A DNA stretch of 64,000 bases from Anaerolineae bacterium (GCA_029907105.1 JARYMM010000002.1:18992-82991); one strand, 5' to 3'. Positions 38,256 to 53,736 are shown, counted from the stretch's first letter. Notes: generated from the letters alone by a model not told the origin. Made by a program: numbers and translations.

Positions 38256-39224
38256 ATGAAGCGATCCCTGCGTATCGTGTTGACCCTGTTAGCCGTCCTG
38301 CTGGCCATCCTGGCCATAGGCCCTTTTCTGGTGCCCGTGCCCGCGCTGCAGGATACCGTCCCGCCGCAACAACTGGCCGACCCCGACAGCCGCTTCATCG
38401 AGGTGAACGGCCTGACCGTCCATTACAAGATGGCCGGTCAGGGCGAGCCGGCGCTGGTGCTTTTGCACGGCTTCGCTGCCAGCACCTTCTCCTGGCGAGA
38501 GGTCATGGCCCCGCTGGCCGAGCTCGGCACCGTCGTGGCCTTCGATCGGCCTTCCTCCGGCCTGACCGAACGGCCCCTGCCCGGCGATTGGGTCGGCGAG
38601 AGTCCCTATAGCCGGGAGGCTCAAGCTGACCTCACCATCGGCCTGCTGGACGCCCTGGGCATCGGACAGGCGGTGCTGGTGGGCAACTCTGCCGGCGGCA
38701 CCATCGCTGCCCTCACCGCCCTGCGCTATCCGCAGCGCATCAGGGCATTGGTGCTGGTAGATGCGGCCATCTACGAGGGAGGCGGCTCCCCCGCCTGGTT
38801 GCGTCCGCTCTTCCACACGCCGCAGATGCGCCATCTTGGCCCGCTCATCGCCCGCACCATCCGCAGGCAGGGCGAGGAGCTGCTGCGCCTGGCCTGGCAC
38901 GATCCCTCCCGCATCACCGCCGAGGTGATGGATGGCTACCGCGAGGCTTTGCAAGCGGAGAACTGGGATCGCGCTCTGTGGGAGCTGACTCTGGCCAGCC
39001 GTGCTTCCGACCTGCCGGAGCGGCTGGACGAACTCACGTTGCCGGTGCTGGTCATCACCGGTGACGACGACCGCATCGTGCCCCCCGAACTGAGCGTGCG
39101 CCTGGCCGGGGAGCTGCCCAATGCTGAACTGGCGGTGCTTGCCAATTGCGGCCATGTGCCGCACGAGGAATGCCCGCAGCCCTTCCTGCAGGCGGTGACG
39201 GCGTTTCTGGATAGACTCCCGTAG
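38256..39224 (+). CDS. alpha/beta-hydrolase
   Basis: Has HGFAAS and GNSAGG nucleophile-elbow motifs. N-terminal transmembrane/signal segment. Confidence 0.75.
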   Translation: MKRSLRIVLTLLAVLLAILAIGPFLVPVPALQDTVPPQQLADPDSRFIEVNGLTVHYKMAGQGEPALVLLHGFAASTFSWREVMAPLAELGTVVAFDRPSSGLTERPLPGDWVGESPYSREAQADLTIGLLDALGIGQAVLVGNSAGGTIAALTALRYPQRIRALVLVDAAIYEGGGSPAWLRPLFHTPQMRHLGPLIARTIRRQGEELLRLAWHDPSRITAEVMDGYREALQAENWDRALWELTLASRASDLPERLDELTLPVLVITGDDDRIVPPELSVRLAGELPNAELAVLANCGHVPHEECPQPFLQAVTAFLDRLP

Positions 39225-39239
39225 AACTGAGGGGAGAAC

Positions 39240-39725
39240 ATGGCCAAAAGAGTACAAATCAACACACCAGCTCCAGACTTCACCCTGGAGGATTTCCGCG
39301 GGCAGGCTGTCAGCCTGGCCGATTTCCGCGGCCAGAAACACGTCTTCCTGGTCTTCAACCGCGGCTTCGCCTGACCCTTCTGCCGCCGGCACATGGCGCA
39401 GTTGCGCCAGGACTATGCGGAGTTCACGGCCCGAGATGCCGAGATCGTGGTCGTCGGCCCAGAGGATGCGACGGCCTTCGAACGTTACTGGACGCAGGAG
39501 AAGCTGCCTTTCCTTGGCCTGCCCGACCCCCAATCCAGCGTGCTCAAGCTGTACGGCCAGGAGGTGAACCTCTTCAAACTTGGCCGCATGCCGGCGCAAG
39601 TCCTGGTGGACAAGGACGGCACGGCCCGTTACGTGCACTACGGCCACTCCATGAGCGACATCCCCTCCAACGAGGAGTTGCTCGCCCTGCTGGATGAGCT
39701 GAAGTCCGCCATCGGCGCGCAATAG
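39240..39725 (+). CDS. PRXL2/AhpC-TSA_2-type thiol-disulfide oxidoreductase with in-frame TGA (codon 45) at the first Cys of its CxxC motif; candidate selenoprotein (UPFC)
   Basis: ATG 39240 is preceded by GAGGGGAG. The sequence ...HVFLVFNRGFA-TGA-PFCRRHMAQL... continues in the same frame into ORF 39393..39725. A hairpin lies 20 nt downstream of the TGA. Confidence 0.6.
39372..39374 (+). other. in-frame UGA, putative selenocysteine codon
   Basis: Occupies the Cys position of the RGF-C-P-x-C redoxin motif. Confidence 0.55.
39395..39408 (+). promoter_or_regulatory. hairpin GGCGC-AGTT-GCGCC, putative bacterial SECIS apical stem-loop
   Basis: Lies 20 nt 3' of the UGA. Shares the loop context GCAGTTGC with the hairpin after the second UGA. 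Confidence 0.4.
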
Positions 39726-39984
39726 CCTGTGGGTAGCCGTCAACCGCCTGCGCCGTCTGTTGGAGCCGGAGGCGAGCGGCGATTTCTACGTGGGCTTCTT
39801 CCATCTGGAGAACTACCGCCCCACTCTGGGGATTGACACCACCTTCGCCGACGGCCGCAGCTTCGAGGTGGACGGGGCATACTGGGAGCAACAGGCCAGC
39901 GACTACATGATCCGGGCGGTGGTTGTACACCGCTAAAGCTGTTTCAGAGCGGTCACCTGATTATTTTCGAGGGAGGTAAGCAAA

Positions 39985-40233
39985 ATGAGCAGCAAGAGAA
40001 TCCTGACGATCATTGTCATCGCCAGCACTGTGATGCTGGCAGTAGGGGCCGGCCCCCAGGTTAGCGGCAACGTCTATGCGCTGCCTGCTGCCCAGGCCGG
40101 CGTGACCATCCCCTACTCGGGGCGTCTGTCCCTTGCTTCGCCTGGGGATGCTGCGCAGAGCGCCGAGGCCGGGCAGCCTGCGGCCGACGGAGCCTACGAT
40201 TTCAGCTTCGCCCTGTACTTTAGTTTCCGCTAA
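39985..40233 (+). CDS. small secreted hypothetical protein (82 aa)
   Basis: Signal peptide MSSKRILTIIVIASTVMLAVGAG. Confidence 0.4.
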   Translation: MSSKRILTIIVIASTVMLAVGAGPQVSGNVYALPAAQAGVTIPYSGRLSLASPGDAAQSAEAGQPAADGAYDFSFALYFSFR

Positions 40234-40244
40234 CTTGTTTTGCC

Positions 40245-40289
40245 ACTACATGTAGTAGCTTTGTTGATTCAGGCTACCGCATGTAGTAG
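40245..40289. promoter_or_regulatory. two copies of CATGTAGTAG (the first within the 12-bp palindrome ACTACATGTAGT) spaced ~34 bp apart, 30-70 nt upstream of the repeat-protein gene; candidate operator
   Basis: 40245..40258 and 40280..40289. Confidence 0.35.
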
Positions 40290-40315
40290 GTCATCGGAGC
40301 GCAAAATGGCCCAAA

Positions 40316-42037
40316 ATGGCTCAAAACCCCAACTTAGCGGAAAGTAGAGTGTACGATGTCCCGGCTGGCGGGGAGCCGCTGTGGACGGAGACGCAGGAAG
40401 GCGTGATGGTGCAGGGGGGCGCCTTCACGGCCTTGCTGGGGAGCGTGAACGGCATTCCCCCGGAGGTATTGGCGGGGAAAGAGCTCTGGCTGGCGGTGGC
40501 TGTGCGCGGGCCAGGGGAGGGGGAGTTCACGCTGCTGGCGCCGCGGCAGGGGGTGAGCGCCGCCTCGTCGCCGACCGGCGCGGCCGGCGGCATGACCTGC
40601 CCTCACGACCACTTTGGGGAAACCTGGACCGGCAGCGGCTCTTCTGGGCTGAACATCACGAACACCGGCGCCGGCAACGGCATCACGCTCCACAATAACA
40701 GCCAGTTTGCCACACTCCTGGCATACAACGCCTCCAGCGGCACCGGCGTGTACGGTTCCAGCAGCACCAGCGGCAAGGGCGTGTGGGGCTTCAGCACCAC
40801 CGGCTTCGGGGTGTATGGAGAAAGCCCCCGCGGCACGGGCGTGTATGGGACGACCGCGATCACGACGGGCACGACGAGCGGCGTAGTAGGCGTGGTCTCC
40901 TCGCCCGACGGCTACGGCGTGTACGGCATGAACACCACTAACGGCACGGGCGTGTATGGCTATAGCAACGGCGGTGCTGGCGTGAATGCCCGGGGTGCGA
41001 ACGCCGTAGTGGGTATCTCCAGCTCGCCCGGCTATGCCGCGATCTACGGTCGCAATGACGCCACCACGGGCACCGGCAGCGGCATCTGGGGCGAGGCCAA
41101 GTCTCCCGACGGCTATGGCGGCTACTTCAAGAACACGGCCGGCGATGGCGTGCGTGTGGAGTCGGTTGGCGGCAATGGTGTGTACGTGCACTCGGCGACC
41201 GATAATGGCGTGGAAGTGCGGTCGGCGGGCGATCATGGTGTGAAGGTGGAGTCGGCGTACTACGACGGTGTGTTTGTGAACTCCGCGGGCATCCACGGCC
41301 TGTACGTGAATTCGGCGGGCGGCAACGGCGTACTCGTGGGGTCAGCCGTGGATAGCGGCGTGTACGTGCAGTCGGCGCACAAAGGCTTGTATGTGGAGTC
41401 GTCAGAGTTGTACGGCGTGCACGCATTTGGAAAGTGGATGGGAGTATGGGGCGAAGTAGAAGGAACCCGCCATGATTGGGGCCTCCACACAACCGACTAC
41501 ATATACGCGCTTAGCTACTTTCTGCTTGGTTCGGTGATGCACGTCATGCAGAACGGGGGCAGCGAGCCTCTGGAACCGGGGGATGTGGTCGTCTTCAGCG
41601 GCCTGGGCGCGCCCCTGGAGGAGGGTGTGCCGACGGTCCAGGTGGCCAAAGCTGCCTCAGCTAACAGCACCGGCGTGGCCGGCGTGGTGTTCAGCCGCTA
41701 TAATCCCCTCATTGTGCCGGAGAACGCGAAGCCGGGAGAGGACAGCATGCCCTCTGGCTGGGAGTTCATGCCGGCGGGGCCCGTGCCGCCGGGCGAATAC
41801 CTGACGGTGGTGATTCAGGGCCCGGCTCAGGTGAAAGCCAGCGCCGTCGCCGGCCCCATCCGGTCCGGCGACCTGCTCTCCAGCGCCCCTGAGGCCGGCT
41901 ATGCCGCCAAAGCGGCCGAGGTCTCGCTGGGAGGGGTCAAGATGGCCCTGCCGGGGACGGTCTTCGGCAAGGCGCTGGAAGCGCTGGACGCCGGCCAAGA
42001 CACCGGCCTGGTATGGGTATGCGTGACGCTGCAGTGA
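40316..42037 (+). CDS. repetitive beta-solenoid-like protein (Gly/Tyr/Val-rich 10-11-residue repeats), function unknown
   Basis: Repeats GTGVYG, NGVYVHSATD, NGVEVRSAGD, HGVKVESAYY, DGVFVNSAGI, HGLYVNSAGG, NGVLVGSAVD, SGVYVQSA. No signal peptide. Confidence 0.6.
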   Translation: MAQNPNLAESRVYDVPAGGEPLWTETQEGVMVQGGAFTALLGSVNGIPPEVLAGKELWLAVAVRGPGEGEFTLLAPRQGVSAASSPTGAAGGMTCPHDHFGETWTGSGSSGLNITNTGAGNGITLHNNSQFATLLAYNASSGTGVYGSSSTSGKGVWGFSTTGFGVYGESPRGTGVYGTTAITTGTTSGVVGVVSSPDGYGVYGMNTTNGTGVYGYSNGGAGVNARGANAVVGISSSPGYAAIYGRNDATTGTGSGIWGEAKSPDGYGGYFKNTAGDGVRVESVGGNGVYVHSATDNGVEVRSAGDHGVKVESAYYDGVFVNSAGIHGLYVNSAGGNGVLVGSAVDSGVYVQSAHKGLYVESSELYGVHAFGKWMGVWGEVEGTRHDWGLHTTDYIYALSYFLLGSVMHVMQNGGSEPLEPGDVVVFSGLGAPLEEGVPTVQVAKAASANSTGVAGVVFSRYNPLIVPENAKPGEDSMPSGWEFMPAGPVPPGEYLTVVIQGPAQVKASAVAGPIRSGDLLSSAPEAGYAAKAAEVSLGGVKMALPGTVFGKALEALDAGQDTGLVWVCVTLQ

Positions 42038-42048
42038 GGAGGCCGGCG

Positions 42049-42321
42049 ATGAAGGGGATAATGCTTCTGCTAACCTTGCTGGTTCTCCTCCTGCTGGTCG
42101 GCGCCGTGCTGGCCCAACCGGGCGGGCCCGGCCCGGCCGTCTGGTACACGGTCGAGGAGGGGATGGCCTCCGGCGGGGGTTATCGCCTGACCGGGCTGGC
42201 CTGGCAGTTTAGCGGCATTGCCAGCGGCGGAAAGTATCGTCTGCTGGGGCCGGCGGCGCCGGCCCTGCGGGGCAACGGCTGCTGCTGCACCTATCTGCCC
42301 TGTATCGTGCGGAGGTGGTGA
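42049..42321 (+). CDS. small secreted Cys-containing protein (90 aa) with duplicated GGxYRLxG motif and C-terminal GNGCCCTYLPCIVRRW
   Basis: GAGGAGG ribosome-binding site 7 nt before ATG 42049. Signal peptide MKGIMLLLTLLVLLLLVGAVLA. Confidence 0.45.
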   Translation: MKGIMLLLTLLVLLLLVGAVLAQPGGPGPAVWYTVEEGMASGGGYRLTGLAWQFSGIASGGKYRLLGPAAPALRGNGCCCTYLPCIVRRW

Positions 42322-42448
42322 GAGATATCCGAGCCTCAGGCAACACACAAGTCGCTCGTGGCCGTCCAGCAGGAGCACGTGTTATACGAGCGGTATCGGG
42401 CAGCACGCCCCAACGCCGATCGTGGATGCCACATAACCGTTCATTGCT

Positions 42449-42877
42449 CTACAAATCCAGCACACACTGCACCACGTGCTGCCCGTTCTCGTCCAGGAAG
42501 TACTTCAATCCCCCGTAGGTGGCGGCTTTGACTTCCACCTTCGGCTGGTGCCGCTCGATGTCCATCGGCTCGCCGCGGGCGATGCCCTCCAGCACATAGC
42601 CGTCATCGGTCCGCTCCAGGCGGGTGACCTGGAAATCGCTGAAGAACAGCCCCTCGATGTCGCGCTGCGCCAGTAACTCGTTGAGCAGCTCCACGAACAA
42701 AGCCGCCGGGTCACCCGCCGCGCAGCGGATAGGGACTTCCTGCCGCGCCACAACCCGCTCCAGATCCACCATCAAATGAAACAGGCCGAGGGCACCATCT
42801 GTCAGCGCCTCGGCCAGCGTCCGCCCGCAACTCCGCAGCCCCACGTCGGCTGTGTGGTCAAGATATTCGTAAGGCAT
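42449..42877 (-). CDS. archease (RtcB ligase activator/chaperone)
   Basis: Starts MPYEYLDHTADVGLR (archease N-terminal signature). 142 aa. Confidence 0.85.
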   Translation of the reverse strand: MPYEYLDHTADVGLRSCGRTLAEALTDGALGLFHLMVDLERVVARQEVPIRCAAGDPAALFVELLNELLAQRDIEGLFFSDFQVTRLERTDDGYVLEGIARGEPMDIERHQPKVEVKAATYGGLKYFLDENGQHVVQCVLDL

Positions 42878-42916
42878 AGATTTTCTCCAAAGCCGAAGGC
42901 AAAAACCTGAACCCGC

Positions 42917-43570
42917 CTACCTCCGCCAGAAGCGCCAATCCCAGCCGCCTTCCTCCTTCTCTGGCCAGCCATGCTCGCCGATCAGCGGCACGAAGGCCAC
43001 GGGGGCCATGTTGCGGGTGGTCGTGCTCTGGCCCTTCTTGCGCACGCAGATCAGATTCTGGAACCCTGCCGGGCCCACGGGAGCCACCAGCCGCCCGCCG
43101 TCGGCCAGTTGATCCAGCAAAGGCTGGGGCACCTCCGGCGCGGCGGCAGTGACGATGATGGCCTCGAAGGGCGCATGCTCTGGCCAGCCGGCCGTGCCAT
43201 TGCCCACCCGCACGTGCACGTTGTGATAGCCCAACTCGGCCAGCAATCTCTGCGCCCGTTCGGCCAGCACGGCGTGGCGCTCGATGGTGTAGACGTCCCG
43301 GGCCAGCTTGCTGAGGATGGCGGCCTGGTAGCCCGACCCTGTGCCGATCTCCAGCACTCGCTCGTGGCTTTGTAATTCCAGCGCCTCCGTCATCAGGGCC
43401 ACGATGTAGGGCTGTGAGATCGTCTGCCCCTCGCCGATGGGCAGCGCACAGTCGGCGTAGGCCGAGGAGAGAAGATGCTCGGGAACGAAGCGATGGCGGG
43501 GCACCTCGCGCATGGCCTGCAGCACCCGCTCATCGGCAATGCCCCGGCTGGCGATCTGGGTCTCCACCAT
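42917..43570 (-). CDS. pcm: protein-L-isoaspartate O-methyltransferase
   Basis: Has TISQPYIVALMTE and LEIGTGSGYQAA motifs. ATG 43570 is preceded by GGGAG. The track's upstream TTG extension overlaps rpoD. Confidence 0.85.
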   Translation of the reverse strand: MVETQIASRGIADERVLQAMREVPRHRFVPEHLLSSAYADCALPIGEGQTISQPYIVALMTEALELQSHERVLEIGTGSGYQAAILSKLARDVYTIERHAVLAERAQRLLAELGYHNVHVRVGNGTAGWPEHAPFEAIIVTAAAPEVPQPLLDQLADGGRLVAPVGPAGFQNLICVRKKGQSTTTRNMAPVAFVPLIGEHGWPEKEEGGWDWRFWRR

Positions 43571-43638
43571 CCGCTCCCGCAGCCGTTGATATTCGGCCGA
43601 AGAGGCTTTCACCTCGCCACTTCCTCCAGGCCGCCAGC

Positions 43639-44838
43639 TCAATCAATGAAGTCGCGCAGACGGCGGCTGCGGCTGGGGTGGCGCAGCCGGTTGAGGGCGT
43701 GGGCTTCGATCTGGCGGATACGCTCCCGGGTCAGGCCGAACTTCTGGCCCACTTCCTCCAGTGTGTAGCTGCGCCCGTCTTGCAGGCCGAAGCGCAGGCG
43801 CAGGATGCGCGCCTCCCGCGGTTGCAATGTCTCCAGGATCTCTTCCAATTCCTCGCGCAGGAGAGCGTTGTCGGCCATCGCCGGCGGTGGCGGCGCTTCC
43901 TCGTCGGCGATAAAGCTGCCCAGCATCGTCTCCTCCTCCTCGCCGACAGGCTGTTCCAGCGACAGCGGACGGCGGGAGAGACGCAACAGTCGCCGCACCC
44001 GGTCAGGGGCCGATTCCATCCGGTCGGCGATCTCCTCGGGGGTGGCGGGGCGTCCCTGATCCTGCTCCAATTCCCGCGAGGCGCGATGCAACAGGCGCAG
44101 CTTGTCGCCGATGTGCACGGGCAGGCGGATGGTGCGCCCCTGATCGGATACGGCACGGCTGACCGCCTGGCGGATCCACCAGGTGGCGTAGGTGCTGAAC
44201 TTGTAGCCCCGTGTGTGATCGAACTTGTCCACCGCCTTCATCAGCCCCAGGTTCCCCTCCTGCACCAGATCGAGGAAGGGCACGCCCTGGCCGATGTAGC
44301 GCTTGGCCACGCTGATCACCAGGCGGGTGTTGGCCTTGATCAGTCGCCGGCGGGCCGCTTCACCTTCCTGTACCGCTTTCTTCAGGGCTTCGATCTTCCT
44401 GGCGCTGAGTCGCCCATCGTCCCTGGCCAGCCGCTCGGCGGCCTCTGCCCCTTTGGCCACGGCTTTGGCCAGTTCCACCTCTTCTTCGGCGGTGAGCAGG
44501 GGCTCCCGCCCCATCTCCCGAAAATAGAGATCGGTGGGGTCGCCCACAGGCACGTCGCTCAGATCGGGCACCTCCTCCTCTCGCTTCGGGGGCTGCCCTC
44601 GGCGTGGCGGCCTGTCCTCCCAGACGTCAATGCCGCGCTCGTGCAACTGAGCAAACAGGTCCTCCAGCAGGTCCAGGCGCTCCTCTGCGTTGGGCAGGGA
44701 GTACAGGATATCGTCATAGGTGATATACCCCTGCTCTTCGGCCTGGCTCAGCAGCTCTTCCATGATGGCCTCAGCCGGCTCAATTTCCATTTCTGTTTCT
44801 GTGGTCTGACCCAGTTCTTCGTAAATCTCGTCCTTCAT
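43639..44838 (-). CDS. rpoD: RNA polymerase primary-type sigma-70 factor
   Basis: Region 2.4 YATWWIRQA and region 4 helix-turn-helix are present. 399 aa. Confidence 0.9.
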   Translation of the reverse strand: MKDEIYEELGQTTETEMEIEPAEAIMEELLSQAEEQGYITYDDILYSLPNAEERLDLLEDLFAQLHERGIDVWEDRPPRRGQPPKREEEVPDLSDVPVGDPTDLYFREMGREPLLTAEEEVELAKAVAKGAEAAERLARDDGRLSARKIEALKKAVQEGEAARRRLIKANTRLVISVAKRYIGQGVPFLDLVQEGNLGLMKAVDKFDHTRGYKFSTYATWWIRQAVSRAVSDQGRTIRLPVHIGDKLRLLHRASRELEQDQGRPATPEEIADRMESAPDRVRRLLRLSRRPLSLEQPVGEEEETMLGSFIADEEAPPPPAMADNALLREELEEILETLQPREARILRLRFGLQDGRSYTLEEVGQKFGLTRERIRQIEAHALNRLRHPSRSRRLRDFID

Positions 44839-44995
44839 TCTCTCAACCTCGCCTCTGCATGAAACACAGATAGCTGTGAACGAACACAGAGAAACGTCAT
44901 GGTGCTTCTCCGCGTTTGTCCGCGTCTGATTGATCTTAACTCAATCTGCACCGTGTGCATATGATGTAAAGCATACCGCCGCGCCGCCCGCCGGA

Positions 44996-47900
44996 TCAAG
45001 GCCTGGACGGGCGCTGACGCGCCGCCTTCAGCTCCCGCACGCGCCCACGGCGATCAATCTGGAAACGCCGCACGTAGCGGGGCGGCAACTCGAAAGCAAA
45101 ACGTGAAGGGCCGCGCAGGAAACCATCGCCCCGATCGCGGGTGGAACAGAGATAGAGCCGTTCCCTGGCCCGCGTCATGCCCACGTAAAACACCCGCCGT
45201 TCCTCGGCCAGCGCGGCTTCCTGCCCCTCCTGCAGCGTCGTCCACAGCGGCAGGTTCTCTTCCTCCACGCCGATGATGATGACCACCGGAAACTCGGTGC
45301 CCTTGGCGTTATGCAGGGTCATCAACGTCACCCGGTCTGGCCGGGTCTCGTGGGCGAAGGTGTCCACGTTGACCACCAGCGCCTGATAGTCAAGAAAGGC
45401 GGAAAGGGAACGGTCTGCGCTGAAACGCAGGAAGGCGGCCACCTGCTGCTGGAACGCCTCCCGCAGGCGATCCCAGGCTTCGTCCACCAGCGGTGGCGGT
45501 TCCTCCGCCTCCAGCCGTGCGGCAAGCAAGGTCAGCCTCTCCTCCGCCTGTGGCCGCAGCTCCCGCACCCGTGCCAGACCCACGATCTCCCCCGAACGCT
45601 GCACGACCCGTCGCGCCGCATTGAGCAGGGCCGCCATCGGGATCATTCCGCCATCCGCATTCCGCTTTTCGCAATGCAGCTCCAGCAGTCCCAGGACGGC
45701 CAACGGCAACAACTCGGGCAGAGCACGCAACGCCGTCTGCCAGCGGTTCTCGGCCAGCAAACGCTCGAAGAGCGCCGCTACCTGGCGCACATCCCCGGCC
45801 GCGCGGTGCTCCACCCGCTCTCCCAGGCCGAAATAGCGCAGCAGGCTCTCCAGACTGTAGCTCGCCGGCGCATCCGGCCCATCGCGCAGCAGGCGGCGGG
45901 CCAGCGTCAACGTGTCCAGGTACGGGTTGCGAAAGCCCCGTCCCAGCAACCGCCCGGCCTCGCGGTCGAGAAAGCGATTGTCGAAGCCTTCGACATTGTG
46001 CCCGACCACGGTGTCGGTGCCGACGTAGGCCAGGAAGCGGGGCAGCACCCTCTCGATGCCCTCGGCGTCCCTGACGTCTTCCCAGCGCAATCCGTGAACC
46101 TGGGTGGCCGCTTTGGGAATGAAACCCTGTTCCGGCCGCACCCTGGCGTAGAAGGGTTCCCCGGCCGGCCTGCCTCCCCGCATGGCCATCCCACCGATCT
46201 CGATGATCTCATCACGTCGGGCATTGGTGCCCGTGGTCTCCAGATCGTAGACGACGAAAGAACCTTCGCCCAGCCGCTCGTGGGCGGCCAGCAGGTCCTG
46301 GGCGAAACGGTAGGCAACCACGCTGCACGGAGTTTCGGGTTCCAGGTTCCGGGTTTCAGGCTCCAGGCTCCAGGCTTCGGGTTCTGAGGCCGGGCTTCTG
46401 GCCTCGAGTCTTAAACCCCCGGCTTCGGGGATGAGTTCAATGTCCAACGGGCGGCCCAGGTAGTGCTGCAGGGTGTGCTCCAGGATGGCCGCCGCGCAGG
46501 CGCCGTCGAGGGTAGCCGGCGCAGTCAGCCGGAGGCGGGCACCCGCCTGGAGTTGGTCGCGCAGCCGTCCAGCCTCCTCGGAAAACGCGCATCCGCTGGC
46601 CCAGGTGCGCCATTTCTGCCATTCTCCCCGCTCAAAGGGACTGCGCCGCTGCTCCAGCAGGGTGAACAGCTTTTCCATGATGACGTCTACGGCCTCCGCG
46701 CTGGCCGGTTTCAACTCCTCCTCGAACAGGCGCAGAAAGCCTTGCAGATTGGCGCGGGTGAGCGGGCTGAGCTCGGGGAAGGCCTGGGCACGGCGGGCCA
46801 GATCGGCCAACCCCACGGCGTGGAAGTCCGCCAGCCTTTGCAACTGCATCACCGTCAGCTCGTCGGCCAGCGTCTGCGGGAAGTTGAGCGCTTCGAGGAT
46901 GGCCTGGTCGTCGGCCAGCGAGCGAATGAGGTGCAGGTAGCGCACCACTTCCCGCGCCCCCGGTTGCTCGAAGAAGTTTTTCTTGCGCACCCGCTGCAGC
47001 GGGATCTGCTCTTGTCCCAGGTATCCCTCCAGGTCGTCGGCCAGTTGATGGGTGCGATAAAAGATGGCGATGTCCCCGCAGGCATAGCCATGCCCGTCGG
47101 CCAGGCGGCGGATGAGACGGGTGATCAGGCGATGCTCCTGTGCGACATCGGCCAGCAGATAGTGATGGATGGGAGCCCCGCGGCCCCGGCTGGTGTGCAG
47201 AAACCGCCGGCGCTGCGGCGACCGCTGGCGGGCGATCATGTTCTGGGCAGCATAGAGAATGGTCTCCGTGCTGCGATAACACTCGGTGAGTTCGATCACC
47301 CGCGGGTGATAGCGGGCGATGAACTCGTCCACCAACTGCGGCTGCGCCCCTCGCCATTCGTAGATGGACTGGTCGTCGTCGGCCACGGCCATGACGTCGG
47401 CCCCTGGCGGGCACAGCAGGGTGAGCAGTTCGTATTGGGCGCGGTTGATGTCCTGATACTCATCCACCAGCACGTGCGGCAGCAGGCGTTGCAACTCCTG
47501 GCGCACCTCCGCCCGCTCCCGCAGCAGGCGCACGGTTTCGCCGATGAGATCGTCGAAGTCGAGGGCCCGGCGGGCACGCAAACCTTCGGCATAATCGGCA
47601 GCCAATTCGGCCCACAGTGGATCCCCGACGCTTTCGCCCGAGGCAGCTCGCGCCAGATCGCGCAACGCCGCTTTCTCGTAGCTGACGAAATCCCGCAGGC
47701 GATAGACCGGGTACAGCTCCTGGCTCAGGTTGCGCCGCGTGATGACGCTCCGCCAGATGGCGTCCTGCAGTACTTCGTCGGCGACGATGAAATCGGGCAG
47801 CAGGCCGATGGCCGCGCCATGCCGGCGCAGGATGCGCAGGCAGGCGGCGTGAAAGGTGTGGATCCAGATGTCTGCTGCCGCCGGCCCCAGCAGGTGTTCC

Positions 47901-48130
47901 AGGCGCGAGCGCATCTCCTCAGCGGCTTTGTTGGTAAAGGTCACGCAGAGCAACCGCGTGGGGGGCACCTTTCGCTCGACGACGAGATAGGCCACACGGG
48001 AGGTCAGGGTACGGGTCTTGCCGCTCCCCGGGCCGGCCAGCACCAACACCGGACCGGGCTCGAGTGTCACTGCCTGCCGTTGGCTGTCGTTCAGGCTTGC
48101 CAGAATCTCTTCCGTCGTGTGCAGGGTCAT
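44996..48130 (-). CDS. UvrD/PcrA-family SF1 helicase with an inserted DnaQ-type (DEDDh) 3'-5' exonuclease domain
   Basis: N-terminal VLVLAGPGSGKTRTL (Walker A). Middle segment VVYDLETTG...HNVEGFD...HRAAGD has exonuclease motifs I-III. C-terminal MTLHNAKGTEFP...VGMTRAR (UvrD C-domain). Start at MTLHTTEE (ATG 48130). Contains an in-frame F1 heptamer insertion. Confidence 0.8.
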   Translation of the reverse strand: MTLHTTEEILASLNDSQRQAVTLEPGPVLVLAGPGSGKTRTLTSRVAYLVVERKVPPTRLLCVTFTNKAAEEMRSRLEHLLGPAAADIWIHTFHAACLRILRRHGAAIGLLPDFIVADEVLQDAIWRSVITRRNLSQELYPVYRLRDFVSYEKAALRDLARAASGESVGDPLWAELAADYAEGLRARRALDFDDLIGETVRLLRERAEVRQELQRLLPHVLVDEYQDINRAQYELLTLLCPPGADVMAVADDDQSIYEWRGAQPQLVDEFIARYHPRVIELTECYRSTETILYAAQNMIARQRSPQRRRFLHTSRGRGAPIHHYLLADVAQEHRLITRLIRRLADGHGYACGDIAIFYRTHQLADDLEGYLGQEQIPLQRVRKKNFFEQPGAREVVRYLHLIRSLADDQAILEALNFPQTLADELTVMQLQRLADFHAVGLADLARRAQAFPELSPLTRANLQGFLRLFEEELKPASAEAVDVIMEKLFTLLEQRRSPFERGEWQKWRTWASGCAFSEEAGRLRDQLQAGARLRLTAPATLDGACAAAILEHTLQHYLGRPLDIELIPEAGGLRLEARSPASEPEAWSLEPETRNLEPETPCSVVAYRFAQDLLAAHERLGEGSFVVYDLETTGTNARRDEIIEIGGMAMRGGRPAGEPFYARVRPEQGFIPKAATQVHGLRWEDVRDAEGIERVLPRFLAYVGTDTVVGHNVEGFDNRFLDREAGRLLGRGFRNPYLDTLTLARRLLRDGPDAPASYSLESLLRYFGLGERVEHRAAGDVRQVAALFERLLAENRWQTALRALPELLPLAVLGLLELHCEKRNADGGMIPMAALLNAARRVVQRSGEIVGLARVRELRPQAEERLTLLAARLEAEEPPPLVDEAWDRLREAFQQQVAAFLRFSADRSLSAFLDYQALVVNVDTFAHETRPDRVTLMTLHNAKGTEFPVVIIIGVEEENLPLWTTLQEGQEAALAEERRVFYVGMTRARERLYLCSTRDRGDGFLRGPSRFAFELPPRYVRRFQIDRRGRVRELKAARQRPSRP
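46331..46432. repeat. family F1 heptamer array (about 14 consecutive 7-nt units: GGTTCCA GGTTCCG GGTTTCA GGCTCCA GGCTCCA GGCTTCG ...) in-frame inside the helicase gene
   Basis: Encodes ...ARSPASEPEAWSLEPETRNLEPETP... between the helicase and exonuclease domains. Confidence 0.8.
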
Positions 48131-48179
48131 GATCAGGTGTCCACCGCCTCGTGCGGTTGCCCGGCTTGCTCTATGTTCT

Positions 48180-48207
48180 ATTATAGCATACTCCTGGCGT
48201 AAGTCAA
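48180..48207 (-). promoter_or_regulatory. promoter TTGACT-16-TATAAT (TGc extended -10) for the helicase-exonuclease gene
   Basis: Plus-strand ATTATA at 48180..48185 and AGTCAA at 48202..48207. Confidence 0.5.
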
Positions 48208-48276
48208 GGGGTTTTTTGAAACGAGTTTCGATCGTTGAGGCTTGTGCGCCATCCTTGCACAGGTCTGGCCTCCAAC

Positions 48277-48305
48277 TTGACAAATATCAAGGGACATGCT
48301 ACAAT
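48277..48305 (+). promoter_or_regulatory. consensus sigma70 promoter TTGACA-17-TACAAT for the perR-led oxidative-stress operon
   Basis: The -35 is at 48277..48282 and the -10 at 48300..48305. The imperfect dyad TTAGAATGGTTATCGTTTAA (48314..48333) over the transcript start is a possible autoregulatory box. Confidence 0.6.
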
Positions 48306-48357
48306 CTCCTCAGTTTAGAATGGTTATCGTTTAATGAGGCTTGTCGTGAGGCAGACG

Positions 48358-48828
48358 ATGCTGACAACTGAGGAGATGTGTCGGAAGTTTCGGGCCCTGG
48401 GGCTGAAGGTGACGCCCCAGAGGCGCTTCATCTTCCAGGTGCTGGAGGGAAACCCCCATCACCCCTCGGCCGAGGCGGTTTACGCAGAAGTGCGTGCTTT
48501 TATCCCTGAGATCTCTCTGGCTACCGTGTACAACACGCTGCGCGAGCTGGTGGACCTGGGTGAACTGCGCGAGTTGAACCTGGGGGATGGCAAGAGCCAT
48601 TACGATCCCGACCTGAGCAACCACCAACATCTGGTGTGCGTGCGCTGCCACGCCGTCGCAGACGTGACCTGTGATATCGGTGGCCTTACCCTGACTCCGG
48701 AGCAAAGCCGGGGCTACCGACTTCTGGGCACTGATGTGACGTTCTACGGCCTGTGCCCCGCCTGCCAGCAGCAGGCGGATTGGCCGGGGCAGGCTTTGCA
48801 CCTGTGGGGGGTATCACCCGCAGCCTGA
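48358..48828 (+). CDS. perR: Fur-family metalloregulator, PerR-like
   Basis: Has a KVTPQRRFIFQVL DNA-binding helix and the HHxHxxCxxC metal site (NHQHLVCVRCH). Position heads a peroxide-stress operon. Confidence 0.7.
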   Translation: MLTTEEMCRKFRALGLKVTPQRRFIFQVLEGNPHHPSAEAVYAEVRAFIPEISLATVYNTLRELVDLGELRELNLGDGKSHYDPDLSNHQHLVCVRCHAVADVTCDIGGLTLTPEQSRGYRLLGTDVTFYGLCPACQQQADWPGQALHLWGVSPAA

Positions 48829-48861
48829 ATGCACATTACGATCGAAAGAAAGGATGACCCA

Positions 48862-49356
48862 ATGGCAAGAACAGATTTCGATTACATGAGCGGGGAGCAA
48901 TACCTGGAGGAGATCCTTCGCCAGGCGATCCGCTTCGAAGAGGAATCGTACGCCCTTTACACCAACGCCATCCGGATCAGCACGATGGCCGATGCCCGGG
49001 CCATGCTGGAGGACCTGGCTGCGCAGGAGTTGGGGCACAAACAGAAATTGCAGCGCCTTCAGGCACAGGGAGTCGCCAACCTTGTCCCTGTGGTGAGGAC
49101 GGCGGAGGCTCGGGACCTCAAACTGGCCGAGGTCTTGCAGGCGCCCTCGGAACTGGATGAAGAAGCCGACCTGCAGGACGTATTACTGGTGGCCATGCAG
49201 CGAGAGAAATCCACTCGCGAGTTCTATCTGAAGCTGGGACAGGTCACCGAAGAAGGGCCGGTCAGGAGCCTGTTCGATTTTCTGGCCGAAGAGGAGTTGA
49301 AGCATAAGCAGCGGGTCGAGTCGCTCTACGAGCAACTGGTCTACCGGGAGTTCTGA
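48862..49356 (+). CDS. rubrerythrin-like ferritin-fold diiron protein (no rubredoxin domain)
   Basis: Has two E...ExxH pairs ([30 protein letters not shown]). Confidence 0.6.
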
Positions 49357-49411
49357 TCGGAAAACGGCCAATGCGATTGGCCTTCTACCCTTTACACGAG
49401 GAGAACATAGC

Positions 49412-49573
49412 ATGAAGAAGTACGAATGTCTCGCTTGCGGCTACATTTACGATCCTGAGCTGGGCGATCCCGATGGGGGCATCGCTCCCGGCACCGCTTT
49501 CGAGGACTTGCCCGACGATTGGGTCTGCCCTCAGTGCGGTGTGGGCAAGGACATGTTCGAGCCCCTGGATTGA
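49412..49573 (+). CDS. rub: rubredoxin (53 aa); not present in the supplied ORF track
   Basis: Sequence [53 protein letters not shown] has two CxxCG knuckles. GAGGAG ribosome-binding site. Confidence 0.85.
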
Positions 49574-49590
49574 GTGAGGCCGGCGAAAGC

Positions 49591-50793
49591 ATGTCAGCCA
49601 TTGCCATCAAACCCGACGTCTATTGGATCGGTGTCAACGATCGGACGACCGACCTTTTTGAGGGCTTGTGGCCGATCTCGCAAGAGGGCGTTTCCTACAA
49701 CGCCTACCTCATCAACGACGAGAAGAAAGCGCTCATAGACCTGGCCAAAGCCTTCAAGGCGGACGAATTCTTCGACCACATCGGCGAAGTGGTGGATCCC
49801 TCGCGGCTTGACTACGTCATCATCAACCACATGGAGCCCGACCACACCGGCGTCTTGAACACGCTGCGCCGCATTGCCCCGCAGGTGACCCTTCTGGGTT
49901 CGGCCAAGACGAAGGAGATGCTGGCCTCTTTCTACGGTGTCACGGAAAACGTCGAGGTGGTCGGCGATGGCGATACCCTCTCTCTGGGCCACAGCACATT
50001 GCAGTTTTTCTCCACGCCCTTTGTGCACTGGCCGGAGACGATGATGACCTACGAGACCGGGCGGCGCATCCTTTTCTCCTGCGACGCTTTCGGTGGCTAC
50101 GGCGCGCTGCGCGGGGCCATCTTCGACGACGAGTACCCCGACCTGGGCTTCTATCAGCGGGAGGCCCTTCGCTACTATGCGAACATCATCGCCGGTTTCA
50201 GCAAACGGGTGCTGATGGCCATCGAGAAGCTGGCCGATGTGCCCGTGGAGATCATCGCCCCTTCGCACGGGCTGATCTGGCGGCAGCATCCCCAGCTCAT
50301 CGTCAACCTTTACCGCCAATGGGCCGAGTATGCCGAGAGCGGTGGCGAGGTCGGCGTGACCCTCGTCTACGGGTCCATGTACGGCTACACGGAGAAGATG
50401 ATGAATGCGGTGGCGCAAGGCATCTCCCGCGCTGGCGTGCCGGTGGAGATTTTCGACGCCGCCAGGACGCACGTCAGCTACATCCTGCCCTCCCTGTGGG
50501 CCCGGATCGGCGTGATGGTCGGCGCTCCGACCTACGAGGTCTCCCTGTTTCCTCCCGTGGCCCAGGTGCTGGACATGGCCGTGCACAAGCGCGTACGGCA
50601 TAAGAAGGCAGCCCGGTTCGGCAGCTACGGCTGGAGCGGCGGCGCGCAGAAACACTTCGAGCGCCTCGTTGAATCGGCAGGCTGGGAATTGCTGGACGTT
50701 TTCGAGTTCGTGGGCAGCCCTTCGCCGGAGGAGCTGGAGCAGGGCGAGGAATTCGGTGCCCGCTTCGCTGCACGGATCAGGGAGGGGCGATGA
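49591..50793 (+). CDS. fprA: flavodiiron protein (FprA; rubredoxin:oxygen/NO oxidoreductase)
   Basis: N-terminal metallo-beta-lactamase fold with HxExDH (HMEPDH) and a C-terminal flavodoxin domain. 400 aa. Confidence 0.85.
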   Translation: MSAIAIKPDVYWIGVNDRTTDLFEGLWPISQEGVSYNAYLINDEKKALIDLAKAFKADEFFDHIGEVVDPSRLDYVIINHMEPDHTGVLNTLRRIAPQVTLLGSAKTKEMLASFYGVTENVEVVGDGDTLSLGHSTLQFFSTPFVHWPETMMTYETGRRILFSCDAFGGYGALRGAIFDDEYPDLGFYQREALRYYANIIAGFSKRVLMAIEKLADVPVEIIAPSHGLIWRQHPQLIVNLYRQWAEYAESGGEVGVTLVYGSMYGYTEKMMNAVAQGISRAGVPVEIFDAARTHVSYILPSLWARIGVMVGAPTYEVSLFPPVAQVLDMAVHKRVRHKKAARFGSYGWSGGAQKHFERLVESAGWELLDVFEFVGSPSPEELEQGEEFGARFAARIREGR

Positions 50794-50811
50794 CGGTTGT
50801 CACATAATGTC

Positions 50812-52029
50812 ATGAATTTCACGATTATCGGCAACGGTGTGGCCGGCAACACCGCCGCCCTGGCCCTGAGCAGGCTCGTCCCAGGGGCGCGGGTTGACGT
50901 CTATGCTGCCGAAGCGCATCCCTACTACCCCCGCCCGCTGCTGCCCGAATTCCTGGCCGGCGAGCTGGACCTGGAACACCTGTACTTCAAGCCCCTGTCC
51001 TGGTATGCCGGGCGGAGCATCGCCCTGCACCTGGGCGTGCCGGTGGTCGCCATCATCCTGCAGGAACATCGCATCACGCTGGCGGATGGCACGAAGGCTG
51101 GCTACGATCGTTTGCTCCTGGCCGCCGGTGGCCAGGCCTGGGTTCCCCCCATTCGGGGCGCAGACAAGCCGGGGGTGTTTACCCTGCGCACGGTGGACGA
51201 TGCCCTGGCCATCCAGTCCTATGCCCGCCGGGCGCGCCGGGCCATCGTCATCGGCGGTGGCCTGCTGGGCCTGGAGGCGGCGCGGGCGCTGCGTGTCCTG
51301 GGTCTCCAGGTGAAAGTGGTCGAGTTTCTGCCCCGCCTGTTGCCCCGCCAGCTCGATGCCGAAGGCGCTGCCGTGCTGCAGGGGCTGATCGAGGGCCGGG
51401 GCATCGAGGTCATGGTGGATGCGGCTGCGGAGGAAATCCTGGGAGCAGATGGCGTGACGGGGCTGCGGCTCAAAGACGGTCGGGAGATCGAAGGGGAGCT
51501 TGTGCTGGTCTCCACGGGCATCCGCAGCAACGTCGCCCTGGCCCGAGAGGCGGGCCTGGAGGTGAACCATGGCGTGGTCGTAGACGAACATCTGCGCACC
51601 AGCGCCGCCGACGTCTACGCCGCGGGGGACGTGGCGGAGTTCGATGCTCGGGTCTATGGCATTGTGCCCGCGGCCATCGAGCAGGCGCGGGTTGCCGCTG
51701 CCCACATGGCCGGCGACGAGAGCGCCACTTATCAGGGCACCGTGCCCTTTACCACGCTGAAGGTCACCGGCATTGATCTGACCAGCGTGGGCGTGATCAT
51801 GCCGGAGGAGGGCCGGGAAGCGGAATATCAGGAGCTGCGGCGCACGGATGGCGCCCAGGGGCTGTACCGCAAGCTGGTGTTGAAGGACGGCTGCATTGTG
51901 GGGGCCATCCTGCTGGGCGACAAGGCCCGTGTGGGCCCCGTCACGCAGTTGATCAACCGGTCAGTGGATGTCTCGGCTCACGTCGAGCGGCTCCTGGATG
52001 ACGATTTCGACCTTAAATCCCTGCTGTGA
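50812..52029 (+). CDS. NAD(P)H:rubredoxin oxidoreductase (FAD-dependent pyridine nucleotide-disulfide oxidoreductase family)
   Basis: Has FTIIGNGVAGNTAA and IVIGGGLLGLEAA dinucleotide-binding motifs. Confidence 0.75.
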   Translation: MNFTIIGNGVAGNTAALALSRLVPGARVDVYAAEAHPYYPRPLLPEFLAGELDLEHLYFKPLSWYAGRSIALHLGVPVVAIILQEHRITLADGTKAGYDRLLLAAGGQAWVPPIRGADKPGVFTLRTVDDALAIQSYARRARRAIVIGGGLLGLEAARALRVLGLQVKVVEFLPRLLPRQLDAEGAAVLQGLIEGRGIEVMVDAAAEEILGADGVTGLRLKDGREIEGELVLVSTGIRSNVALAREAGLEVNHGVVVDEHLRTSAADVYAAGDVAEFDARVYGIVPAAIEQARVAAAHMAGDESATYQGTVPFTTLKVTGIDLTSVGVIMPEEGREAEYQELRRTDGAQGLYRKLVLKDGCIVGAILLGDKARVGPVTQLINRSVDVSAHVERLLDDDFDLKSLL

Positions 52030-52077
52030 AGCGATGGTTTCCCTCTGGAAGCACTGTTTCCACCTGTGTGGTTGGTA

Positions 52078-52105
52078 GTAGGACAACTGCGAGCAGTTGT
52101 CCTAC
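52078..52105. promoter_or_regulatory. perfect 28-bp palindrome GTAGGACAACTGC-GAG-GCAGTTGTCCTAC between nror and rbr, flanked by direct repeats AGCACTGTTTC (52050 and 52143)
   Basis: Read directly. No U-tract follows, so this is not a classical terminator. Confidence 0.5.
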
Positions 52106-52205
52106 GCTGGTAGCCAGCAGCGCCCATCGCAACCGCACAGGTAGCACTGTTTCAGGATGTGTTGGCATCCTGACCACGACTCTTCACATTCAAGGAGAAG
52201 CAACG

Positions 52206-52709
52206 ATGAAACTGATGACCAAAGACAATCTGCAAGCTGCCTTTGCCGGCGAGAGCCAGGCGCACATGAAGTATCTGATCTTCGCCGATCAGGCGGAGAA
52301 GGAAGGCTTTCCCGATGTCGCCCGTCTCTTCCGCGCCATTGCCTTCGCCGAGCAGGTCCATGCCACCAACCACTTCCGCACCCTGGGCAAAATCGGCCAG
52401 ACGGCGGAGAACCTGCAGGCGGGGATTGATGGGGAGACCTATGAGGTGAACGAGATGTACCCCGCCTTCCGCGCCGTGGCTGAGCTGCAGGAGGAAAAAG
52501 GGGCGAACCGCTCGATGAGCTGGGCCCTGGAGGCGGAGAAGGTGCATGCCGGGATGTACGAACAGGCCCGCCAGGCCGTCCTCTCCGGCAAGGATGCCGA
52601 GGTGGGTGAGGTGTACATCTGCGAAGTCTGCGGCTGGACCGTCGAAGGCGAGCTGCCTGAGCGTTGCCCCATCTGCGGGGCCAGGAAGGAGAAGTTCCGC
52701 CGCTTCTGA
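52206..52709 (+). CDS. rbr: rubrerythrin (ferritin-like diiron domain plus C-terminal rubredoxin-like CxxC...CxxC)
   Basis: Has AFAGESQAHMKY and the C-terminal CEVCGW...CPICGA. AAGGAGA ribosome-binding site. Confidence 0.85.
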   Translation: MKLMTKDNLQAAFAGESQAHMKYLIFADQAEKEGFPDVARLFRAIAFAEQVHATNHFRTLGKIGQTAENLQAGIDGETYEVNEMYPAFRAVAELQEEKGANRSMSWALEAEKVHAGMYEQARQAVLSGKDAEVGEVYICEVCGWTVEGELPERCPICGARKEKFRRF

Positions 52710-52907
52710 GATGGGCGGACAGGAAAGACACGGTGTTGCCACGTTGATCGTCGCAGGTTGCCTGTGGGGTGCTGAACAGGAGGTTTGCTCATGGCAGAGA
52801 AGGAAAAGATCCCCTCTTGCGTGCAACCAGCAGCCGGCCCGTTAGTGCCGGCACCGAAGCTCGCCTCCGCCAAAGGCGAGCCGGCAACCGAGAAGGAGGT
52901 ACCTGAG

Positions 52908-53498
52908 ATGATCGCACGTGTGGGCAAGGAAGCGCCGGATTTTGAGACCAATGCCTTTGTGGACGGAGGCTTTAAGAACATCAAGCTGTCGGACTATCGC
53001 GGCCAGTGGGTGGTGCTCTGCTTCTACCCCGGCGACTTCACCTTCGTTTGACCGACGGAACTGACGGCAGTTGCCGCCAGGTATCCGGAGCTGAAGGCGT
53101 TGGGCGTCGAGGTGCTGGCCATGAGCGTGGACAGCGTCTTCGTTCACAAGGTCTGGCAGGAAGAAGAGCTGTCCAGGATGATCGAGGGGGGAGTTCCCTA
53201 TCCCATGCTCTCCGACCGGGGCGGGCGCATCGGCACCGTCTACGGAGTCTACGACGAGGCCGCTGGTGTGGACATTCGGGGCCGTTTCCTGATTGACCCC
53301 GATGGCGTGATCCAGGCCATGGAGGTCCTGACACCGTCTGTGGGCCGCAACCCGGACGAGCTGGTCCGCCAGGTCAAGGCGTATCAGCATGTGCGGGAAA
53401 CGGGCGAAGTCACCCCCTCCGGCTGGACACCAGGCCAACCCACCCTCAAACCAGGTCCTGGTCTGGTGGGCAAGGTCTGGAAGGTGTGGAAGCCCTGA
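52908..53498 (+). CDS. AhpC/Prx1-type peroxiredoxin with in-frame TGA at the peroxidatic cysteine ([14 protein letters not shown]); candidate selenoperoxiredoxin with no resolving Cys
   Basis: ATG 52908 is preceded by AAGGAGGT. ORFs 52785..53051 and 53100..53498 share a frame across TGA 53049..53051. A hairpin lies 13 nt downstream. Confidence 0.65.
53049..53051 (+). other. in-frame UGA, putative selenocysteine codon
   Basis: Replaces the Cys codon of the universal peroxiredoxin motif DFTFVCPTE. Confidence 0.6.
53065..53076 (+). promoter_or_regulatory. hairpin CGGC-AGTT-GCCG, putative bacterial SECIS apical stem-loop
   Basis: Lies 13 nt 3' of the UGA. Loop context GCAGTTGC is shared with 39395..39408. 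Confidence 0.4.
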
Positions 53499-53559
53499 GC
53501 ATCCTGGAGGCAACCGTCCGACGATCAGCGTGGCTATTCTTCGAGAGGAGGGAGGGGCG

Positions 53560-53736
53560 ATGACAGAGTTGAAATGCGATTTCTGCGGCGATCCTATCGA
53601 GGGGGAAGCGATCAGGCGCGGCGATCGCGTCTACTGCTGCGAGGCCTGTGCCTTTGAGGCCACCCGCAGCAAGGATTGCGGCGGCCGCGGCGATTCCCAT
53701 CTGCCTCACCAGGTCGCGGAACCCGTCGAGCGGTGA
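53560..53736 (+). CDS. small Cys-rich metal-binding protein (TRASH/zinc-ribbon-like), 58 aa
   Basis: Sequence MTELKCDFCGDPIEGEAIRRGDRVYCCEACAF... has C-x2-C...CC-x2-C. GGAGGGG ribosome-binding site. It is the last gene of the operon. Confidence 0.4.
   Translation: MTELKCDFCGDPIEGEAIRRGDRVYCCEACAFEATRSKDCGGRGDSHLPHQVAEPVER

Follow-up and report, generated by a model that had tools for sequence, protein, structure and literature searches.

The TGA-interrupted peroxiredoxin gene

The DNA analysed here is a 64,000-nucleotide stretch from an Anaerolineae bacterium (GCA_029907105.1 JARYMM010000002.1:18992-82991; hereafter the window), and its plus strand carries a candidate selenoprotein gene of the peroxiredoxin (Prx) type, prxU. 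Two open reading frames (ORFs) at 52785..53051 and 53100..53498 share one frame, and their sole interruption is the TGA at 53049-53051. A preliminary description of the locus had reported two same-frame ORFs split only by this TGA, and both the sequence and its translation agree. Read through, the frame runs for 235 codons from the ATG at 52791 to a stop TGA at 53496-53498 (52791..53498), and the internal TGA is codon 87, the codon that would specify selenocysteine (Sec87). The coding signal, expressed as a higher G+C content at third than at second codon positions (GC3 > GC2), runs on through this TGA.

Family and domain profiles were scanned with U (selenocysteine) replaced by C in the prxU protein. 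The NCBIfam equivalog model NF040737 (peroxi_PrxU, thioredoxin-dependent peroxiredoxin), which has a cut-off of 270 bits, was matched with 381.2 bits by the long form and with 369.7 bits by a short form counted from Met40. Pfam returned AhpC-TSA (1.3e-39), Redoxin and 1-cysPrx_C (PF10417). The AhpC equivalog TIGR03137 fell short of its cut-off (193.6 bits vs 272), and the C-terminal resolving Cys found in its GEVCPA motif is replaced in this protein. All 1-Cys Prx6-type models (NF009668, NF009669, NF009670 and NF010122) likewise scored below their cut-offs, the best two reaching 122-137 bits against cut-offs of 211-261; the generic PF10417 is the only 1-Cys-type profile that matches.

To relate these matches to solved structures, we compared the protein with all chains of the Protein Data Bank (PDB) using phmmer. 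Residues 42-222 align to the Prx1/AhpC-type structures 4fh8, 7kj1 and 1qmv (E ~1e-50), and the TGA column coincides with the C of FTFVCPTE, the peroxidatic Cys (Cp). This confirmed that the stop lies on the catalytic Cys, as the preliminary description had stated. The active site P80-G-D-F-T84-F-V-U87, with U87 encoded at 53049..53051 (P80-x3-T84-x2-U87), fits the PxxxTxxU/C motif as given in PMC13188914, and the invariant Thr and Arg of peroxiredoxins are retained. Since GEVTPSGW aligns with GEVCPAGW in the same comparison, Thr208 (53412..53414) stands in place of the canonical resolving Cys near the C-terminus, and the reported absence of this Cys is correct. Among the 120 closest homologs this column is T in 101, A in 6, M in 5 and C in 4. 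Another Cys, Cys77 of LCFYPGD (53019..53021), is common in the PrxU clade and occupies a position held by Phe in Prx1/AhpC proteins (typical Prx1 VLFFYP).

Conservation of the TGA was assessed in two sets of homologs: the 120 closest proteins from a 5.8-billion-protein collection (56-82% identity), and the best 80 loci from one-genome-per-species GTDB contigs, which are 66-78% identical to the query. In the protein set the Cp column reads W in 69 entries, C in 49, R in 1 and L in 1. We checked three of the 'W' proteins at the DNA level (P0093, P0002 and P0001) and all three carry TGA; the W that databases show at this column is a gene-caller artefact. In the genome set, the Sec87 codon is TGA in 79 of the 80 loci and TGC in one (L066), and TGA was also present in nine of nine metagenome loci. 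The 80 genome loci span Anaerolineae, Dehalococcoidia, Caldilineae, Zixibacteria and Ignavibacteria, among others, as well as several deltaproteobacterial orders, Acidobacteriota, Actinomycetota and Clostridia. The best genome matches are Anaerolineae/Chloroflexota metagenome-assembled genomes (MAGs) at 74-75% identity, and identity to the prxU protein reaches 79-82% among its nearest database entries. Downstream of the TGA the frame is intact and, over 148 codons, ~80% identical to homologs. The presence of TGA in 79 of 80 loci across phyla rules out, as explanations, a nonsense mutation private to this genome and an error in base calling. In the only Cys form in the best 80 loci, L066 (TGC at 10226-10228), the hairpin GGCGGC-GGUC-GCCGCC is still perfect, and Sec may have been converted to Cys recently in this locus.

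Hairpin, second selenoprotein gene and decoding of the TGA

We observed a hairpin just 3' of the TGA, at 53061..53080 on the plus strand, with arms at 53061-53068 and 53073-53080 and an apical AGUU loop at 53069-53072. The hairpin CGGC-AGTT-GCCG previously noted 13 nt after the TGA corresponds to the inner part of this structure (53065-53076); its four perfect pairs extend outwards to eight pairs with one A.C mismatch. With the U of UGA as position 1, the loop presents G22 U23. The 20-mer has a folding energy of -8.7 kcal/mol, and a 42-nt stretch folds at -15.8 kcal/mol (z = -2.3), a stability equalled by 4 of 200 shuffles. Folding of 81 nt around the TGA gave z = 0.09; the signal is seen only in a stretch the size of a selenocysteine insertion sequence (SECIS) and, most clearly, in covariation.

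To quantify covariation, we built an alignment of 82 distinct sequences, each covering 57 nt around the TGA, and scored an explicit structure in which columns 19-27 face columns 30-38. Standard pairs occupy 87.0% of cells, compared to 79.9 +/- 0.6% in shuffled alignments, and none of 500 shuffles reached the observed value. The covariation score of 0.291 was likewise reached by 0 of 500 shuffles, whose mean was 0.158, and scores did not exceed 0.127 in slid controls, in which the 3' arm was shifted by 1-3 columns. Both-sided changes occur in six of the nine hairpin pairs. For columns 24-33 the pairing is GC in 67 sequences, AU in 11 and GU in 4, with none unpaired; for columns 27-30 it is AU in 46, GC in 33, GU in 2 and other in 1. 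Both pairs of columns join synonymous third codon positions, columns 27-30 being the third bases of Ala and Val codons, and the loop reads AGUU or GGUC accordingly. Because the compensatory changes fall at synonymous third positions, the pattern goes beyond what protein coding can produce, and compensatory change of this kind indicates selection on the hairpin structure. RNAalifold, applied to the 82-sequence alignment, returned the three innermost pairs only.

The published bacterial SECIS (bSECIS) model, as given in PMC13188914, comprises a loop of 4 nt whose second position is G and whose third is U, a stem of 4-16 bp, a distance of 16-37 nt from UGA to loop and a minimum free energy of at most -7.5 kcal/mol. 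The prxU hairpin agrees with all four constraints, its UGA-loop spacing being 17 nt (53052-53068). The purine-pyrimidine (R:Y) complementarity that flanks GU in its loop also fits the bSECIS pattern N1-G-[G/U]-N-N2, where N1 pairs with N2 (Zhang and Gladyshev, as relayed in PMC13188914). Like the fdhF-type SECIS of E. coli, it is a hairpin within the coding sequence just 3' of the UGA, with a small apical loop that contains G and then U. In the E. coli fdhF loop these nucleotides are G23 U24, and G22 U23 of prxU thus lie one nucleotide nearer to the UGA. Unlike the fdhF element, the prxU stem is shorter and has no bulged U, and its function as a SECIS is predicted. The Cys-form homologs P0010 and P0018, whose last residues are ...VWKP, end at the position of the terminal TGA of prxU (53496-53498), and no SECIS-like hairpin was found downstream of this TGA (folding z = +1.8).

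A second gene of the same kind emerged from a scan for in-frame TGA codons with flanking coding signal. A GC3 threshold of 0.75 missed both cases, and the relaxed scan yielded this gene as the sole other convincing TGA-interrupted case. It lies at 39240..39725 on the plus strand, 13.4 kb upstream of the prxU start, with its TGA at 39372-39374, and would encode an AhpC/TSA-fold UxxC redox protein. The predicted product reads ...VFLVFNRGFA-U-PFCRRHMAQLRQDY..., with the motif FNRGFA-U-PFC, and a hairpin UGGCGC-AGUU-GCGCCA follows on the same strand at 39394-39409 (-10.0 kcal/mol; 25 nt from UGA to loop). Its homologs bear AhpC/TSA and Redoxin Pfam domains and have a false W (TGA) or a C at the Sec column; many of them consist of the C-terminal part only and begin with MAQLRQDY. 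L094, a syntenic locus whose C-terminal fragment is 93% identical, and L095 (69%) both keep the TGA as well as the hairpin. The U-P-F-C motif, the alternation of Sec and Cys and the SECIS-like hairpin liken this gene to the Prx-like thiol:disulfide oxidoreductase selenoproteins (UxxC, AhpC/TSA fold). Its best NCBIfam match, a SelL-related redox protein, stays at 85.5 bits below the cut-off of 120, so that its family assignment is tentative. Gene callers split it into ORFs of 44 and 110 aa.

With two genes of the selenoprotein type in only 64 kb, the source genome very probably decodes Sec. In a related Anaerolineaceae MAG (L054, JACKCG010000008.1), a tRNA-Sec gene with anticodon TCA (9852-9947) lies 54 nt upstream of prxU. 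No Sec machinery beyond this tRNA gene was present in the ten ORFs neighbouring the L054 prxU, all of which are unrelated.

Several observations weigh against selenocysteine insertion at prxU. The 64-kb window contains no tRNA genes, including tRNA-Sec, and no selA, selB or selD was present among its scanned ORFs, which were not all of those in the window. Rfam gave 0 matches across the whole window at gathering thresholds, and permissive E-values over 52980-53180 produced noise only (long non-coding RNA and microRNA models); Rfam is without a model usable for the prxU SECIS element. Within the stem, the A.C mismatch falls at pair 16-29, which is G-C or A-U in many relatives, and the Ala-Ala-Val-Ala codons partly force the G-C pairs. 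The Cys-form homologs for which DNA is available (n = 5; L066 and L090-L093) partly keep the stem. Three of these five show decay of the loop or of the stem, but the sample is too small for statistics. Given codon-forced G-C pairs and stem remnants in Cys forms, the stem alone is weak evidence, and it is the covariation at third positions that counts.

We considered three other explanations for the TGA. In the first, prxU is a pseudogene in which a Cys codon, TGC or TGT, has become TGA and only an inactive 86-residue fragment is made. One transition or transversion suffices for the change from TGY to TGA, gene callers give two fragments, 83-aa homolog fragments exist in databases, and no Sec machinery turned up among the window ORFs that were scanned. 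However, a decayed gene would have to share its TGA with 79 of 80 related genomes from many phyla, and would have to keep both the conserved 148-codon frame beyond it and a hairpin with compensatory changes at synonymous sites. The second gene of the same kind in the window also speaks against decay, and we regard it as very improbable.

Selenium-free read-through of the UGA is equally hard to sustain. Here Trp, Cys or Gly would be inserted through near-cognate or suppressor decoding, or through a reassigned code, and it is true that some pipelines translate the homologs with W and that Sec machinery in the source genome is a prediction. However, 33 of the 48 predicted genes in the window terminate with TGA, as does prxU itself, so that the genetic code is standard, just as the preliminary description had maintained. 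Trp is moreover unable to replace the peroxidatic Cys; apart from the one R and the one L among 120 proteins, the column alternates between TGA and Cys only, and the downstream element matches the SelB-dependent SECIS model. Had a TGC/TGT Cys codon been misread or misassembled, one wrong base would have been enough, but the probability of such an error is close to nil, as TGA recurs in independent assemblies of dozens of relatives, to which the TGC of L066 is the exception, and the SECIS-type loop R-GU-Y is the same as in the TGA-bearing relatives.

We are highly confident that the region is one gene, prxU, and that it encodes a thioredoxin-fold peroxiredoxin of the AhpC/Prx1 type with selenocysteine as the peroxidatic residue. 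The preliminary description had offered this reading, and family membership, the conserved TGA, hairpin covariation and the second selenoprotein gene support it. By analogy with the established bacterial Sec pathway, the hairpin at 53061-53080, its loop G22 U23 exposed, would be bound by SelB.GTP.Sec-tRNA(Sec). The SelB complex would deliver Sec to the UGA at 53049-53051 in place of a release factor, and the second UGA at 53496-53498, which is without a hairpin, would terminate the protein. The conserved Pro80, Thr84 and Arg163 would hold the selenolate of Sec87 in place, and this selenolate is expected to reduce H2O2 or organic hydroperoxides and to be converted to a selenenic acid in the process. 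The selenenic acid might be recycled by a thiol, either by a thioredoxin-type reductant directly or by Cys10, a residue of the N-terminal extension, acting first via a selenenylsulfide. Sec insertion itself is a prediction drawn from sequence, as are the reductant, the function of Cys10 and initiation at both start sites described below.

N-terminal Cys and nested start sites

The preliminary description had begun the gene at 52908, which is an internal in-frame ATG. Upstream of it the frame is free of stops back to the ATG at 52791, and this ATG, rather than the TTG at 52785, is the likely first start. A Shine-Dalgarno (SD) sequence, AGGAGG, lies 7 nt before it (52778..52783, plus strand). 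The residues gained in this way contain the motif C10-V-Q-P-A-A-G-P (52818..52841), which is conserved across loci and includes a candidate resolving Cys. Almost every unique Sec locus has CVxPAxGP at a distance of 74-78 codons upstream of Sec, and a separate count found it in 78 of 86 unique loci. Third positions in the motif are free, with TGT in 41 and TGC in 37 and with all four GTN, CCN and GGN codons represented, which shows that the extension is translated and under protein-level selection. The extension is present in Cys forms too.

Since the NF040737 match begins at prxU residue 9 and profile position 3 (it spans positions 3-230 of 233), the 39-residue N-terminal extension belongs to the family model. 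The extension is outside the coverage of any solved Prx structure. An AlphaFold2 model of the Cys homolog P0010 had a confident core, with a mean predicted local distance difference test (pLDDT) score of 89.9, but low confidence in the extension, with values of 63, 55 and 46 for residues 1-30 in blocks of ten.

From the internal ATG (52908..52910; Met40) a shorter isoform of 196 residues probably begins, and both this start and its SD are conserved. The SD-like element preceding it, AAGGAGGT (52893..52900), falls in the strongest SD-motif peak of the gene region, at -159..-151 nt relative to Sec, where the 87 loci together have 222 hits; upstream SD-core motifs in the 87 loci peak at -267..-250 nt. 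The combination of SD, start and Cys motif is found at the upstream site in 74 of the 86 unique loci, and SD plus in-frame start at the internal site in 80 of them (ATG 65, GTG 11, TTG 4). Both start sites are present in 70 of the 86, and a few loci (L031, L038 and L051) have the internal start alone. The two sites are ~39 codons apart, with CVxPAxGP followed by a variable linker between them. In 19 of 80 loci the internal GGAGG core is in another codon phase, encoding KGG, EGG, RRE and others; its retention across codon phases points to selection at the nucleotide level. Many database entries begin at the internal Met.

This arrangement suggests that nested starts yield a long form of 235 residues, with Cys10, and a short form of 196 residues. 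Cys10, 77 residues before Sec, would be a candidate resolving thiol of the long form, and Cys77 would be another. The earlier inference of a 1-Sec enzyme is thus doubtful and unproven, as the conserved Cys10 lies in the extension that a start at 52908 excludes, and Cys77 comes in addition. A more novel reading, which we consider less likely than not, is that prxU specifies not a 1-Sec enzyme but two isoforms, a long one in which Cys10 would resolve Sec87 via a selenenylsulfide and a short one without Cys10. Counted from its internal Met, the Firmicute-type homolog P0093/L001 has 203 residues and Sec47. The Sec-peroxiredoxin purified from Eubacterium acidaminophilum is said to have 203 residues, with Sec at position 47.

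Gene neighbourhood and relation to known families

prxU is the seventh of eight genes in a same-strand oxidative-stress cluster (48334..53736, plus strand), assigned by Pfam. The cluster opens with a Fur/PerR-family regulator (48334-48828) and a rubrerythrin-like protein (48829-49356), followed by a 53-residue rubredoxin ORF (49412-49573), which is situated between the rubrerythrin-like and flavodiiron genes and whose counterpart is called in L094. Next come a flavodiiron protein (FprA-like; ends 50793), a rubredoxin-reductase-like flavoprotein (50797-52029) and a rubrerythrin (52206-52709). Directly after prxU, a Cys-rich protein of 58 residues (MTELKCDFCGDPIEGEAIRRGDRVYCCEACAFEATRSKDCGG...; 53560-53736) completes the cluster; it has sub-threshold matches only, to prokaryotic metallothionein (24.7 bits vs 33) and to the TRASH domain.

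The gene order of the cluster is the same in the close relative L094, compared as far as the rubrerythrin gene. This contig (ENA ERZ4756919, NODE_4237, 21.9 kb) was compared with ~38256-52709 of the window. The shared order runs from a hydrolase through the UxxC selenoprotein, an archease, a PCMT-type methyltransferase, sigma-70 and a UvrD-exonuclease fusion to Fur, the rubrerythrin-like protein, rubredoxin, FprA, rubredoxin reductase and rubrerythrin. The window has ~2.3 kb of extra genes (39985-42321) that are absent from L094. A prxU ortholog in L094 would be expected directly past the end of the part compared.

Rubrerythrin, rubredoxin and flavodiiron-type proteins make up the usual O2/H2O2 detoxification set of anaerobes. 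From the position of prxU at the end of a Fur/PerR-rubrerythrin-rubredoxin-flavodiiron cluster we infer an anaerobe-type oxidative-stress role. The gene is probably part of such a response, and the gene context leads naturally to a role in peroxide removal.

Sec-containing peroxiredoxins are an established enzyme type and recur in all selenoproteome surveys. PrxU was purified and sequenced from Eubacterium (Peptoclostridium) acidaminophilum (Sohling et al. 2001, Biol Chem 382:979, as cited in PMC13188914 and PMC8533274), and 'Peroxiredoxin (Prx), TxxU' is listed among the prokaryotic selenoprotein families in a 2026 review (PMC13188914). Twelve Sec-Prx genes were reported from 2006 genomes, with Chloroflexi already among the selenoprotein-containing phyla (PMC1794560), and 43 Sec-Prx in Sargasso Sea data (PMC1088965). 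The enzyme type is therefore not new, and the prxU of the window is a further member of the established PrxU/Sec-Prx family, conforming to it in every respect that can be tested in silico. In the literature searched we found nothing relevant on NF040737 or on Anaerolineae selenoprotein peroxiredoxins.

The window gene resembles the PrxU of E. acidaminophilum in belonging to the same family by curated hidden Markov model, in its TxxU site with UGA and in having likewise lost the C-terminal resolving Cys. It differs from that protein in its Chloroflexota-type lineage and its setting in a rubrerythrin/FprA cluster. With the typical 2-Cys Prx1/AhpC proteins (4fh8, 1qmv and 7kj1; AhpC 1yep and 4ma9) it shares the fold and the signature FYPxDFTFVCPTE. 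Unlike them, it has Sec for the peroxidatic Cys, Thr for the resolving Cys and an N-terminal extension with a Cys. We found no description of nested starts or of an N-terminal resolving Cys in Sec-peroxiredoxins in the accessible literature, and the family-wide N-terminal Cys together with the two conserved in-frame starts may be the only new element.

The biological importance of the finding is small, as the family has been known since 2001 and a curated NCBI model exists. It has value for annotation: gene callers would break up both prxU and the gene at 39240-39725 into two pieces. A false Trp stands at the catalytic residue in most of the closest protein entries (69 of 120), and many members of the P0093 cluster are 83-residue stubs that end at the TGA. 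Misannotation of PrxU in metagenome protein sets is systematic. In conclusion, two selenoprotein genes within 64 kb mark the organism as a very probable Sec user, and the N-terminal Cys and nested starts bear on the recycling of a Sec-peroxiredoxin that has lost its canonical resolving Cys.

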